From: Candidatus Hermodarchaeum yapensis
GTDB taxonomy: Archaea > Asgardarchaeota > Hermodarchaeia > Hermodarchaeales > Hermodarchaeaceae
DNA: 11,899 bases
Direction of reading: 5' to 3'
Assembly (NCBI GenBank): GCA_016840405.1
Contig: JAEOSK010000052.1
Coordinates: 1 to 11,899 of the forward strand
In this document: piece after piece, positions 8,301 to 11,899 of the stretch
Numbering within the stretch: the stretch's first letter is position 1
Layout: each line of letters opens with the position of its first letter
Notes under the pieces: model-generated
Told to the model about the DNA's origin: nothing
Databases searched by the model: none
Seen by the model: only the letters and a program-made list of their open reading frames with translations
Position numbers and translations under genes: made by a program

Positions 8301-9302
8301 CTATTTCTTCGCTGTCATGCTGATATAGACTATCTCCGGTGGCTTATCGGGAATCGGCTTAGGGCGATTGGGTAACCTTAGTCTGACTAATCTTCGTGAA
8401 GGTCCGGGAACAGAACCATCAATGAGAAGAAAATCGGATTGTAGTACTCCATAATGTGGAAAACCGCCTGCAGGTGTGATATCGTCAGTTTTTTCGCCGA
8501 TTTTTAGGAGCCGTTTGTTATATTCTGTACGTTGATGGACGCCCATTTGTCCTGGGCGAGGAACTGTGTACATGATTCGGTTTGGATGCCATGGACCCAG
8601 TGTACCTACTGCGCGGACTCGTTTCCGAGTTTTATGCGAGAGTTTCTTGACACCAAATCGTTTAATCACACCTTGAAAGCCCTTCCCTTTGGTTACTCCA
8701 ATGATATCTAAGAATTGACCTGGTTGGAAAACGTCTCGAACACGAATTTCTTGTCCAAGGAGGTTCTTGGCGAATTCGAATTGATCGTTTATTGTCCCAC
8801 CATATACACCAAATTCAAGGGCATCAGGTTTCTTTTGTCCAATACCGGCTTGGCGGGGTTGCGTTAAGAGTTGTACTCGTAACTCAACTAAGTCGTCAAG
8901 AGATTTGGTGAATTTCTTCAAGGCGGCTGCGGCATCATAGTCTTTTGGCCAGGGCATTGTTCGACGGATATCCTTAGGGAGATTTTCCATCCAAGTTTCG
9001 CCAATTACTTGCAATCCCCCGCCATTGCGACCATATCCTCGTAAAGAAGCTACAAGCATTGGTGGTGTATCAACAATTGTTACAGCACGACTTATCTCAC
9101 GACCATACCAGGGACTATTCGGTTTGTCGTCAACTAGGATCACATGCGTCATACCAACTTTATACCCGGCATAGCCCAGAATTTGAGGGTCTGTGACATG
9201 TGTAGGCCAATGACGAACGCGTCCACTAAGACGACGCGCACGTTTTCGGGGACGGTAGGAAAGGCTACCATGTCTGGGGGCATGTTTTTTTCGATGACCC
9301 AT
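8301..9302 (-). CDS. rpl3: 50S ribosomal protein uL3
   Basis: Motifs PRHGSLSYRPRKRA, GYKVGMTH, VTKGKGFQGVIKRFG and GQMGVHQRTEYNK. The ATG at 9302 is preferred over the TTG at 9317. Confidence 0.97.
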   Translation of the reverse strand: MGHRKKHAPRHGSLSYRPRKRARRLSGRVRHWPTHVTDPQILGYAGYKVGMTHVILVDDKPNSPWYGREISRAVTIVDTPPMLVASLRGYGRNGGGLQVIGETWMENLPKDIRRTMPWPKDYDAAAALKKFTKSLDDLVELRVQLLTQPRQAGIGQKKPDALEFGVYGGTINDQFEFAKNLLGQEIRVRDVFQPGQFLDIIGVTKGKGFQGVIKRFGVKKLSHKTRKRVRAVGTLGPWHPNRIMYTVPRPGQMGVHQRTEYNKRLLKIGEKTDDITPAGGFPHYGVLQSDFLLIDGSVPGPSRRLVRLRLPNRPKPIPDKPPEIVYISMTAKK

Positions 9303-9397
9303 GGATTCCACTACCAAGGGATTAACTATGCCGGGAAAGCAATACTATCAACCAAATAAGGCGTTGCTTTTACGGCTTACCGGCTCGGAAGCAAGCG

Positions 9398-9545
9398 CCG
9401 TGATTTAAGTGTTTTGTGTGAACTACGCCTGCCTTCAGGCAGGTGTTTCCATCGAGTCCACTACCCAGGTAGCTTGGGGTAGGGCTGTGTGTCGATGCAA
9501 ACCAAACAAGAAATCTTGTAATGGTTCCCCGTTCACAGGAGGTTG
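9398..9545 (-). ncRNA. Predicted TnpB omegaRNA (reRNA): scaffold about 9545-9418 plus guide 9417-9398; 5' end uncertain
   Basis: Stems CTCC/GGGG (loop TGTGAAC), CATCGA/TCGATG, CTACCC/GGGTAG and CCTGCC/GGCAGG. The loop GTGAAC (9536-9531) is complementary to the terminal GTTCAC (9423-9418), forming a pseudoknot. Confidence 0.65.
9402..9417 (-). promoter_or_regulatory. Putative BRE/TATA of the rpl3 operon
   Basis: Minus strand ACAAAACA-CTTAAATC (TTAAAT at 9408-9403), about 100 nt upstream of the rpl3 ATG and directly abutting the IS right end. Confidence 0.5.
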
Positions 9546-9810
9546 CTGCGATAGAAACCGCACCATGATGTTGACTGCTGCGTTCTGGTCCCTATCAAAA
9601 GAGGTTCCACAATCGCACTGAATAATGCGCTCTGATAACCGTCGGTCCCGAACCTTGCCACAAACACAACACCTCTTGGTTGTCTGCGCCTCATCAATCC
9701 TTATTACTCTTTTACCCACTTTCTTTGCCTTGTAGGTCAAGAATTGGACGAACCGCCCCAAGAACCCCGTGTTCTGAATCGAATGATTCAACGTTCGAGC
9801 CGCCGTATCC
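9418..9810 (-). mobile_element. IS200/IS605-family remnant (right end plus 3' part of tnpB); left boundary approximate, no left end or tnpA seen
   Basis: The minus strand ends in the subterminal hairpin CCTGCC-TGAA-GGCAGG followed by CGTAGTTCAC (last base 9418), the usual right-end layout. TnpB-like sequence is recognisable only from about RTLNHSIQNTG onward. Confidence 0.8.
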
Positions 9811-9884
9811 TGCCTTGACAGTTGGGGAGTTATTGGAAAATAGGCTAAATTGGAGGTATTTCGCTGGCAAACTTTCGACCACAC
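9435..9884 (-). pseudogene. tnpB: 5'-truncated TnpB (C-terminal zinc ribbon and RuvC-III only)
   Basis: Motifs FLTYKAKKVGKRVIRIDEAQTTKRCCVCG, CDCG and DRDQNAAVNI. No WED/REC domain, RuvC-I Asp or RuvC-II acidic motif. The first ~28 codons look unrelated to TnpB. Confidence 0.85.
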
Positions 9885-9952
9885 CGCTATTCCTTTAAAC
9901 TAAAAGTACCATCCTACACGAAGGTCTGAAAAATTTCGTAACATTTTCAGGA

Positions 9953-10066
9953 GCCGGGTTAGCCAAGTGGTTACGGCGCGGGCCTTGAGAAATGGTATGT
10001 GAATACCGTTTCAAGGGAGCCTGTGGCTTCCGAGCCGCAAGGGTTCGAATCCCTTACCCGGCGCCA
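9953..10066 (+). tRNA. tRNA-Ser (anticodon TGA) with a 28-nt intron at 37/38 and encoded CCA
   Basis: Acceptor stem GCCGGGT/ACCCGGC, discriminator G, CCA. D arm GCC..GGC. Anticodon stem CGGGC/GCCTG with TGA at 9986-9988. Long variable arm GGCT-TCCG-AGCC. T arm AAGGG-TTCGAAT-CCCTT. Confidence 0.93.
9990..10017 (+). other. Archaeal tRNA intron with bulge-helix-bulge motif
   Basis: Central helix CTTG (9984-9987)/CAAG (10012-10015), bulges AG^A and GG^A, and an intron hairpin TGGTAT-GTGA-ATACCG with a GNRA loop. Confidence 0.88.
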
Positions 10067-10178: not shown

Positions 10179-10601
10179 GTGAAATATGAGTACTTTGACG
10201 AGATTACATCGGATCAGATGTTTCGGGCATATGGAACCACACTTTCTGAAGTCTTCGAACATGCAGCCATGGCGATGTTTGGCATAATGTATGACTTAGA
10301 GGAAATCAGGATTGATAATCAAGTCAAAGTTGAGGCAAAGGGCCTAGATAAAGAAAAACTACTTTATGATTGGTTATCTAATCTTCTTCTTGAATTTGAA
10401 GTGGAAGGCGTATTTTTTGCGGAGTTTTCTGTCGAAGAAATTAATGAATCTCCCGAAAAGAAAATGCATCTGAGTGGGATAGCAAAAGGAAGTCGAACGA
10501 TGCCCGAACTTCGAACTCATGTTAAAGGAGTGACATTTCATCGGTTTGCCCTTGAAAGGGTTAATAACCAATACATTGCTACGGTGGTAGTTGATGTTTA
10601 A
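10179..10601 (+). CDS. Archease (RtcB activator)
   Basis: N-terminal YEYFDEITSD-x-FRAYG, LLYDWLSNLL, VKGVTFH and C-terminal VDV. 140 aa, GGTGGT RBS, directly upstream of rtcB. Confidence 0.92.
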   Translation: MKYEYFDEITSDQMFRAYGTTLSEVFEHAAMAMFGIMYDLEEIRIDNQVKVEAKGLDKEKLLYDWLSNLLLEFEVEGVFFAEFSVEEINESPEKKMHLSGIAKGSRTMPELRTHVKGVTFHRFALERVNNQYIATVVVDV

Positions 10602-10632: not shown

Positions 10633-11899
10633 ATGAAGGAGAAATTGAAGCAACAAGATGAATTCCGTTGGTGGTTGGATAAGTCAGCACGAGAACGAAT
10701 GAAGGTAAGCGCTAAAATTATTGGTTCACGCAAAATTATTGACGCTTTAGAAGATGCTGCCGTTGAACAACTCACTAATGTAGCTACCCTTCCCGGAGCT
10801 GTTGAGCCGGTTCTTGCAATGCCTGACGCACATTGGGGTTATGGATTACCCATGGGTGCAGTTGGCGCATTTGATGCCGAAGAAGGGATAATCTCTGCAG
10901 GGTGTACAGGTTTTGACATCAACTGTGGCGTTCGTTTGCTTCGAACCAATCTCACCTTAGATGCCCTAAAACCAAAATTGCGCCAACTAATGGACGAACT
11001 CTTCCGTCGTGTTCCCGCGGGTGTCGGTTCAAAGGGTAAACTGCGATTAAGTGATGGTCAATTTAACGATGTCGTACGACTAGGAGCACGTTGGGCGATT
11101 GAGAATGATCATGGGATTGAAGCCGATCTCACTCACTGTGAAGAAACTGGAGGAATGGAAGGCGCAGCCACCAAGGCACCGCGTATAACAGAGAAGGCTC
11201 GACGGCGTGGTCGACCGCAACTAGGAACGTTAGGTGCGGGTAATCATTATCTAGAAGTGCAAAAAGTAGAGAAAATATTTGACGAAAATGCAGCTAAGAC
11301 GTTTGGTCTTGAATCAGGACAGATTGTCGTCATGTTGCACTGTGGTTCTCGTGGTTTTGGTCATCAGGTTGCAACAGATTACCTTGAACGCATGGCGACG
11401 GCGGTAAAGAAGTACAACATTTGGCTTCCAGATAAGCAACTTGTCTGCGCACCCGCTTCGTCACCTGAAGGACAGGACTATTATGCGGCGATGAAGGCCG
11501 CTGTCAATTTTGCCTTCTGTAACCGCCAAGTGATGACCCATTGGATTCGAGAAGGCTTTGAAGCGGTATTCAGCAAAGATTGGGAGAAGATTGGTCTAAA
11601 TCTTGTTTATGACGTGACACATAATATTTGCAAGTTCGAAACGCATGAGACGAATGGAACCAAACGTGATCTTTACGTTCACCGAAAGGGTGCAACACGT
11701 GCTTTTGGACCAGGGAACCCACTTATTCCTGAAGCCTATCGTTCTGTGGGGCAACCGGTATTAATTGGTGGCTCGATGGGAACCGCTTCATACGTTCTCG
11801 TGGGTACAGAACAAGCCATGAAGGAAACTTTCGGTTCGACATGCCATGGTGCTGGGCGTGCTATGTCACGCAAAGCCGCAATCCGCCGATATCATGGAC
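10633..11899 (+). CDS. rtcB: RtcB tRNA-splicing ligase (3' end outside window; absent from the ORF track because no stop is reached)
   Basis: Manual translation from the ATG at 10633 (GGAGG RBS) gives MPDAHWGYGLPMG, GFDINCGVR, QLGTLGAGNHYLEVQ, HCGSRGFGHQ, YDVTHN, VHRKGAT, GSMG and STCHGAGR. The frame is open to the window edge. Confidence 0.97.
   Translation, partial: MKEKLKQQDEFRWWLDKSARERMKVSAKIIGSRKIIDALEDAAVEQLTNVATLPGAVEPVLAMPDAHWGYGLPMGAVGAFDAEEGIISAGCTGFDINCGVRLLRTNLTLDALKPKLRQLMDELFRRVPAGVGSKGKLRLSDGQFNDVVRLGARWAIENDHGIEADLTHCEETGGMEGAATKAPRITEKARRRGRPQLGTLGAGNHYLEVQKVEKIFDENAAKTFGLESGQIVVMLHCGSRGFGHQVATDYLERMATAVKKYNIWLPDKQLVCAPASSPEGQDYYAAMKAAVNFAFCNRQVMTHWIREGFEAVFSKDWEKIGLNLVYDVTHNICKFETHETNGTKRDLYVHRKGATRAFGPGNPLIPEAYRSVGQPVLIGGSMGTASYVLVGTEQAMKETFGSTCHGAGRAMSRKAAIRRYHG

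Follow-up and report, generated by a model that had tools for sequence, protein, structure and literature searches.

Does an omegaRNA gene that has lost its TnpB persist as a stand-alone guide, and does it act on the promoter that its guide matches? Both questions are raised by a tnpB remnant in an Asgard archaeon, which lies in the 650-bp spacer separating a tRNA from the ribosomal protein gene rpl3. The window, the whole stretch of DNA analysed here, is the entire 11.9-kb contig C74 of a 2.7-Mb, 86%-complete MAG, referred to below as G000.

On its minus strand the window carries rpl3, rpl4, rpl23 and rpl2, identified from ORFs and Pfam matches. On its plus strand it carries an intron-containing tRNA, archease and RtcB. 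The tRNA was missed by ARAGORN and detected by Rfam. The features of the locus are as follows.

8301-9303, minus strand: rpl3 (Pfam PF00297; conserved ATG), the operon's first gene, with its promoter abutting the right end of the element
9398-9417, minus strand: guide (flank), containing the BRE/TATA of rpl3-rpl4-rpl23-rpl2, a block conserved with or without the insertion
9418-9547, minus strand: core omegaRNA scaffold, from covariation, a covariance model and a single-sequence fold
9435-9812, minus strand: tnpB 3' remnant, residues 310-439 and the stop, with zinc ribbon and RuvC-III (PF07282)
9548-9617, minus strand: upstream long-range RNA helices (helices 1-3) within the tnpB coding remnant, from the covariation alignment
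9808-9814, minus strand: deletion junction, a single 7-bp GGCAGGA where the full-length element has two (comparison with G002:C15)
9808-9844, minus strand: left-end stub of 37 nt, aligning with the left ends of eight copies (seven from G000 and that of G002)
9845-9849, minus strand: degenerate TAM, TTTAG in G000 and TTTAC in G002 and G005:C3
9953-10063, plus strand: intron-containing tRNA (Rfam RF00005, 47 bits), the other boundary of the insertion site

The element and its deletion junction

The remnant is very probably a 427-bp internal-deletion derivative (9418-9844, minus strand) of an IS1341-type element of about 1.43 kb (tnpB-only, IS200/IS605). It is composed of the left-end stub and the last ~395 bp of the element, fused at the 7-bp microhomology. 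Similarity to the seven other family copies in G000 ends exactly at 9418, the last C of GTTCAC (GTAGTTCAC), and in a BLAST search of the genome these copies matched the window over 9418-9812 only. Because family homology stops at 9418, the 20 nt at 9417-9398 are flank, i.e. the guide. The original prediction had spanned 9398-9884. It placed the right end and the 20-nt guide correctly but misjudged the extent of the element.

The ORF at 9435-9884 (minus strand) keeps a single TnpB domain, the Cas12f1-like TNB domain (PF07282, E = 1e-20). Its product matches residues 310-435 of the intact 439-aa TnpB of a related genome, G002, at 97% identity. About 70% of the protein is gone, confirming the prediction that tnpB lacks its N-terminal two-thirds. 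The initial 23 residues of the ORF match no TnpB sequence. They come from host flank, the degenerate TAM and the left-end stub, and the ORF is thus chimeric.

The left-end stub is 97% identical to positions 4-38 of the G002 element. In the full-length copy, one GGCAGGA lies in the left-end hairpin region and the other in the ORF. The right-end hairpin is present and covarying in the remnant. The family left end has a CCCCG/CGGGG hairpin, which is degenerate at the rpl3 site, also in the full-length G002 allele.

History of the insertion site

The region was used to query 40 genomes of relatives. Four forms of the rpl3 site emerged, one empty, one full-length and two with internal deletions of independent origin. 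On G002 contig C15, a 1434-bp element with an uninterrupted 439-aa tnpB occupies the same position between the same flanks. The G000 allele equals this G002-type element minus 1006 bp, lost between the two copies of the 7-bp repeat. On G005 contig C3, ~147 nt of the left end are fused to the last 310 nt. This junction differs from that of G000, indicating a second, independent deletion. The empty site, on G005 contig C288, consists of TTTAA, one T and then the promoter block, with target duplication absent. A further 11 tRNA-rpl3 spacers, taken from the genomes of 10 other relatives, contained no interrupting IS and had a conserved promoter block. One site in four states provides a natural-history series, indicating that effector-less omegaRNA loci can arise by in-place deletion as well as by mobilisation of mini-elements.

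The insertion is carried by three sampled species of the genus. Its position is identical in all three, and it was therefore most likely acquired by their common ancestor. Shared derived substitutions make G000 and G002 sisters and leave G005:C3 outside, and the G000 deletion is thus younger than the G000/G002 split. The original prediction had cautioned that a recent deletion would account for the same picture. The full-length element in the sister species and the 1006-bp loss at the 7-bp repeat bear this out.

Three other studies (marine sediment 2017, estuary 2025) yielded contigs identical to the window across the G000 junction. The full-length allele of the rpl3 site was found in a mangrove metagenome contig of a fourth study. 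Given the matches in three other studies, the junction marks a genuine allele with a geographic spread and is not a product of assembly. The remnant is thus not confined to one sample. Confinement to one strain was among the outcomes that the original prediction would have counted against itself.

A remnant with both element ends could in principle be a mobile PATE-like mini-element that inserted as a short unit. This explanation is refuted by G002 and the mangrove contig, both of which have the full-length element at exactly this site, and we give it practically no chance of being correct. The junction is moreover a unique 7-bp microhomology with no second copy anywhere in G000, and the G005:C3 allele of the site is joined differently. 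In-place deletion is the reading that we retain.

Internal-deletion derivatives that keep both ends number at least seven in the genus, compared with about 17 full-length copies, making this a frequent route of decay. In each of these derivatives the right end is preserved over no less than ~95-130 nt. A breakpoint bias sparing the scaffold was considered and rejected, as it was not significant given uniform breakpoints and BLAST detection limits.

The G005 MAG holds both an occupied (deleted) allele, on C3 (L062), and an empty allele, on C288 (L060), with flanks diverged by ~6-8%. This indicates either strain or species mixing in the bin, or alleles that coexist in the population.

The guide, the promoter and the TAM

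The tRNA-rpl3 spacer was aligned across 12 related genomes from two genera. It contains a single sharply conserved block, a BRE followed by a TATA box, with the consensus CGAAAGACTTAAATC in most genomes. In G000 this block equals guide positions 2-16, in agreement with the original claim that the guide covers the operon's BRE/TATA. Downstream of the block lie a conserved leader of ~75 nt and then the rpl3 ATG. The right end of the element is one base upstream of the BRE, element and operon point in the same direction, and the promoter has been left intact. A TTTAA-directed element can evidently come to lie a single base from an essential operon's BRE and still leave it intact.

The guide matches the promoter because omegaRNA guides are read from the DNA 3' of the right end, and the guide is hence set by the insertion site. 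The original prediction had itself warned that the promoter match is automatic, and this warning was justified. It applies equally to any promoter-side insertion. A promoter-matching guide arises automatically in such cases and says nothing on regulation without a TAM-flanked target.

We found TTTAA to be the family TAM. It lies 5' of the left end in ~12 independent copies, distant archaeal ones included. Among the seven G000 siblings, six have TTTAA immediately before the left end and one has CTTAA, and TTTAA likewise precedes family copies of Methanohalarchaeum and of other Asgard lineages. Before the resident target stands the right end, TTCAC, and no TAM, as the original prediction had noted for the occupied allele. 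DNA binding by TnpB and TldR needs a TAM before the target (PMC10705468). Since the resident target has none, action on the resident promoter is not expected. The sole TAM-flanked form of the target is the IS-free allele, the canonical homing target.

In a scan of G000, the only perfect guide match was the resident flank, and none of the matches with up to 3 mismatches over 16 nt was TAM-flanked. An IMG/VR contig of 118 kb (L115) carries, at 554-574, TTTAA with 15 of the 20 guide bases (positions 2-16), apparently in coding sequence. It was rejected as a viral target as three composition-matched control patterns gave 3, 0 and 0 hits, putting the match at chance level.

We also considered whether transcription from the element, or from upstream of it, reads through into rpl3 and adds to or occludes the native promoter, such that the deletion was favoured for altering output. 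The element is co-oriented with the operon, its right end is not followed by a T-run terminator, and the rpl3 site has undergone two independent deletions. Internal deletions are however equally common at other sites, and the native BRE/TATA is intact and conserved. Selection for altered read-through is thus an unlikely explanation of the deleted allele.

The TnpB family and its candidate effector

BLAST identified four full-length family copies of ~1.43 kb in G000 (C67, C73, C40 and C39), a copy cut by the contig end (C6), two further internally deleted copies (C24 and C76) and a contig-end fragment (C26). The eight omegaRNA copies of the genome comprise four beside a tnpB with nonsense codons, three in internal-deletion derivatives and one at a contig end. 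Each of the four full-length copies (L002-L005) has 1-3 in-frame nonsense codons and no frameshift over 1.3 kb. The nonsense codons include TAG, TAA and TGA, and mostly replace Trp or Gln codons via transitions. Recoding was rejected as the source of these in-frame stops. TAG, TAA and TGA are mixed and no PylS was found above the cut-off, and the stops were treated as nonsense mutations.

C39 and C40 have TAG at the same Trp codon despite only 72% identity. The family copies sampled from relatives are nearly all intact.

The original prediction relies on a TnpB encoded in trans. Our search for a cognate TnpB in G000 returned one candidate, C6, whose reading frame stays open for 353 aa until the contig ends and which shares 90% DNA identity with the remnant over a 132-bp overlap. 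C6 is a possible cognate effector of the remnant RNA, albeit incomplete at the contig end. No match to the Y1 transposase family (PF01797) was found in G000, which is 86% complete. The 1434-bp G002 element encodes tnpB only and no tnpA. Its TnpB contains PF12323 (HTH), PF01385 (OrfB_IS605) and PF07282 (TNB) and matches the ISDra2 TnpB structures.

In the family protein, the motif I(V/I)GxL replaces the RuvC-II glutamate (L061:1972-3288, minus strand, and family copies). The replacement was seen in G000 and, of 11 Asgard (Hermodarchaeia-type) copies sampled, in 10; the remaining one is heavily degraded. A conserved D/N-E motif lies just before the zinc ribbon, and the RuvC-I and RuvC-III aspartates are retained. 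A class with glycine-substituted, rearranged RuvC-II (RIIr) is predicted to be active via a relocated glutamate (PMC10691335). Judged by these motifs, the family TnpB is predicted to be an active protein of the E-to-G rearranged RuvC-II type and not a dead TldR.

The glycine RuvC-II, rearranged-site class has also been discussed for Fanzors, and is found here in Asgard archaea. As an Asgard TnpB with glycine-substituted RuvC-II, the family is of possible interest for TnpB-Fanzor links.

The locus can be compared with the IS1341 group and ISDra2 TnpB (PDB 8h1j, 8bf8). Like these, the full-length copy encodes HTH, OrfB_IS605 and zinc ribbon domains, and the element lies 3' of a 5-nt TAM, has not duplicated its target and carries a subterminal hairpin at its right end. 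The omegaRNA also overlaps the tnpB 3' end, with a pseudoknot beside the guide and the guide taken from the right flank. By contrast, the rpl3-site copy lacks 70% of tnpB, the family has the RuvC-II glycine (RIIr type, PMC10691335), the host is an Asgard archaeon and a Y1 transposase was not found in the 86%-complete genome.

These data also bear on whether the orphan guide steers a TnpB-family protein to the ribosomal protein BRE/TATA and tunes transcription as a TldR would. Promoter repression by RNA-guided TnpB derivatives is established (PMC10705468), and the guide at the rpl3 site covers the BRE/TATA exactly. TldR guides are likewise complementary to the core promoter of a host gene, and some TldR relatives use a TTTAA TAM (PMC10705468). 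TldR targets however carry the cognate TAM (PMC10705468), whilst the remnant's target has TTCAC and not TTTAA before it. No dead effector accompanies the remnant either, as the family protein has the E-to-G RuvC-II predicted to be active (PMC10691335) and keeps its RuvC-I and RuvC-III aspartates. Unlike TldR (PMC10705468), the remnant shows no conserved non-transposon gene association and retains both transposon ends. The arrangement is limited to three closely related species and stems from an ordinary insertion, whose site explains a guide that is flank-derived by default. We consider TldR-like regulation extremely improbable, and rate any host regulatory role of the remnant no higher. The original suggestion that the locus modulates ribosomal protein transcription is thus not upheld, as the target lacks its TAM and the family TnpB is predicted to be active.

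Structure of the omegaRNA scaffold

The core scaffold consists of the right-end hairpin (9425-9446), two compound stems and one hairpin with a pseudoknot loop. This loop, GTGAAC (9533-9538), is able to pair with the terminal GTTCAC (9418-9423). Covariation was assessed by aligning the 200-nt 3' ends of 21 family copies (72-97% identical) from nine genomes. The RNAalifold consensus showed compensatory changes in 22 of 49 pairs. The inner stem and the GTGAAC/GTTCAC pseudoknot were added to this consensus. In the completed structure 95.2% of cells were paired, compared with 28-44% when the 3' partners were slid by 1-3 columns. Changes on both sides were seen in 23 pairs, and none of 500 shuffles reached the observed values.

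Eight of the nine pairs in the right-end hairpin covary. The upstream helices 1-3 were 94-99% paired, with 3 pairs changed on both sides. By contrast, the pseudoknot showed no covariation and was invariant except for three G-U cells and two unpaired cells. As it never covaries, covariation neither supports nor contradicts the pseudoknot.

A covariance model of the last 130 nt scored the remnant at 147 bits, level with the best copies. The remnant sequence alone folds into the same stems (z = -2.9). The right-end hairpin, the three further stems and the GTGAAC/GTTCAC pairing are all found in the remnant, and the scaffold is intact, as originally described.

Retention and use of the scaffold

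The scaffold was compared with the dead ORF for signs of retention. Since its split from G002, the G000 lineage has gained four private changes in 395 nt. The 130-nt scaffold received one of these, a C-to-U change by which pairing is maintained as G-U, and the other three fall in the ORF-only part of 265 nt. With only four private changes, the comparison of scaffold and dead ORF is without power at the rpl3 site. Interspecies identity of the remnant was 96-97%, higher than in the rpl3 coding sequence (95%) and in the neighbouring spacer on the tRNA side (91-94%), albeit from small numbers. The higher identity of the remnant could reflect constraint or, equally, a younger coalescence.

An older orphan, C76, was more informative. 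At family-conserved columns it had private changes in 2 of 89 scaffold positions, compared with 11 of 77 in the ORF-only part (Fisher p = 0.007). In a second decayed copy, whose tnpB status was not checked, the corresponding counts were 14/93 and 25/79. The scaffold of C76 is better kept than its dead ORF, indicating that orphan scaffolds of this family can be under selection. In at least one orphan, then, the scaffold can survive longer than its gene, which agrees with the stand-alone omegaRNAs on record (PMC10691335).

The original prediction suggested that the locus may be retained as a stand-alone guide. Our results point instead to a recent deletion in place, with the sister species full-length at the same site. 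The remnant could nevertheless work as a stand-alone omegaRNA, transcribed, bound in trans by the C6 TnpB, selected at the level of the element and cleaving IS-free, TTTAA-flanked alleles of the spacer to the advantage of the occupied one. Its intact scaffold with a top covariance-model score, the candidate effector C6, the coexistence of empty and occupied alleles in related populations and the decay of the ORF part but not the scaffold in C76 are all in line with this. Stand-alone omegaRNAs that work in trans have also been described (PMC10691335). Against this, the deletion is too young, at four changes in 395 nt, to separate retention from lack of time. Of the five G000 family copies other than the deletion derivatives and the fragment, four have nonsense codons and the fifth is incomplete, and a Y1 transposase was not found in G000. 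At the site itself the left-end TAM is already mutated, and guide position 1 (A) mismatches the single sequenced empty allele (T). We therefore regard a working stand-alone omegaRNA as possible but doubtful. The same tentative rating applies to the narrower proposition that the rpl3-site remnant is still expressed and loaded.

Stand-alone or PATE-like omegaRNAs (PMC10691335 and its reference 1) resemble the remnant in being effector-less, with a complete scaffold and a flank-derived guide. In both cases the host genome also carries copies that encode the effector. The described stand-alone omegaRNAs were 'evidently mobilized' (PMC10691335), whilst the remnant came from an in-place deletion, is found at one locus only and keeps 130 tnpB codons. 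By its sequence, the locus is an effector-less omegaRNA gene, one that might still serve its element family in trans. The cutting of IS-free alleles, the other activity suggested originally, is possible and would be the canonical role of TnpB.

We propose the following history for the locus. The element, directed by its TAM, would have inserted 3' of TTTAA in the tRNA-rpl3 spacer of an ancestor common to the three species. The G000 lineage later lost 1006 bp between the 7-bp repeats, sparing the whole omegaRNA gene. The remnant RNA, if still made, would come from a left-end or upstream promoter, or be produced by read-through. C6 TnpB binding this RNA in trans would cut TTTAA-flanked IS-free alleles, amounting to selfish homing. 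The resident promoter would be spared, with TTCAC in place of the TAM.

A further-reaching version is that the loaded orphan omegaRNA acts as an allele guardian that cuts IS-free copies of the rpl3 promoter, or represents an early intermediate between a transposon guide and a TldR-like regulator. We consider this highly unlikely. If the guardian role were true, IS-free, TTTAA-flanked copies of the rpl3 promoter would be cut whether they arose or entered by recombination.

Neighbouring features

The rpl3 leader (9318-9392, minus strand; ~75 nt) contains a hairpin whose arms covary across genera. G000 has the arms AAAGCAA/TTGCTTT, most of the genus has GGAGGCAA/TTGCCTCC, and a different genus has GGCGACAA/TTGTCGCC. 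An Rfam search with the leader gave no match. The hairpin may be an autoregulatory site for a ribosomal protein. Nearby, the rpl3 ribosome-binding and start region (9299-9315, minus strand) resembles scaffold segment 9449-9465 (minus strand), with 15 of 17 positions matching. Each is conserved on its own, the scaffold segment at every other insertion site and the ribosome-binding site in genomes lacking the element, and the resemblance is therefore older than their proximity.

On the other side of the insertion site, the tRNA (9953-10063, plus strand) has an intron and a long variable arm. It lies directly 5' of archease (10179-10601, plus strand) and RtcB (10633-11898, plus strand). RtcB is a tRNA-splicing ligase and archease is its activator.

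Between the tRNA and the insertion site, at 9889-9899, is a TTTAAA box with its flanks (GTTTAAAGGAATAGCGG, minus strand), which is conserved not only in most of the genus but also in a second one. It may be the promoter of the tRNA or a second, upstream promoter facing rpl3. In the latter case it would transcribe the tnpB remnant.
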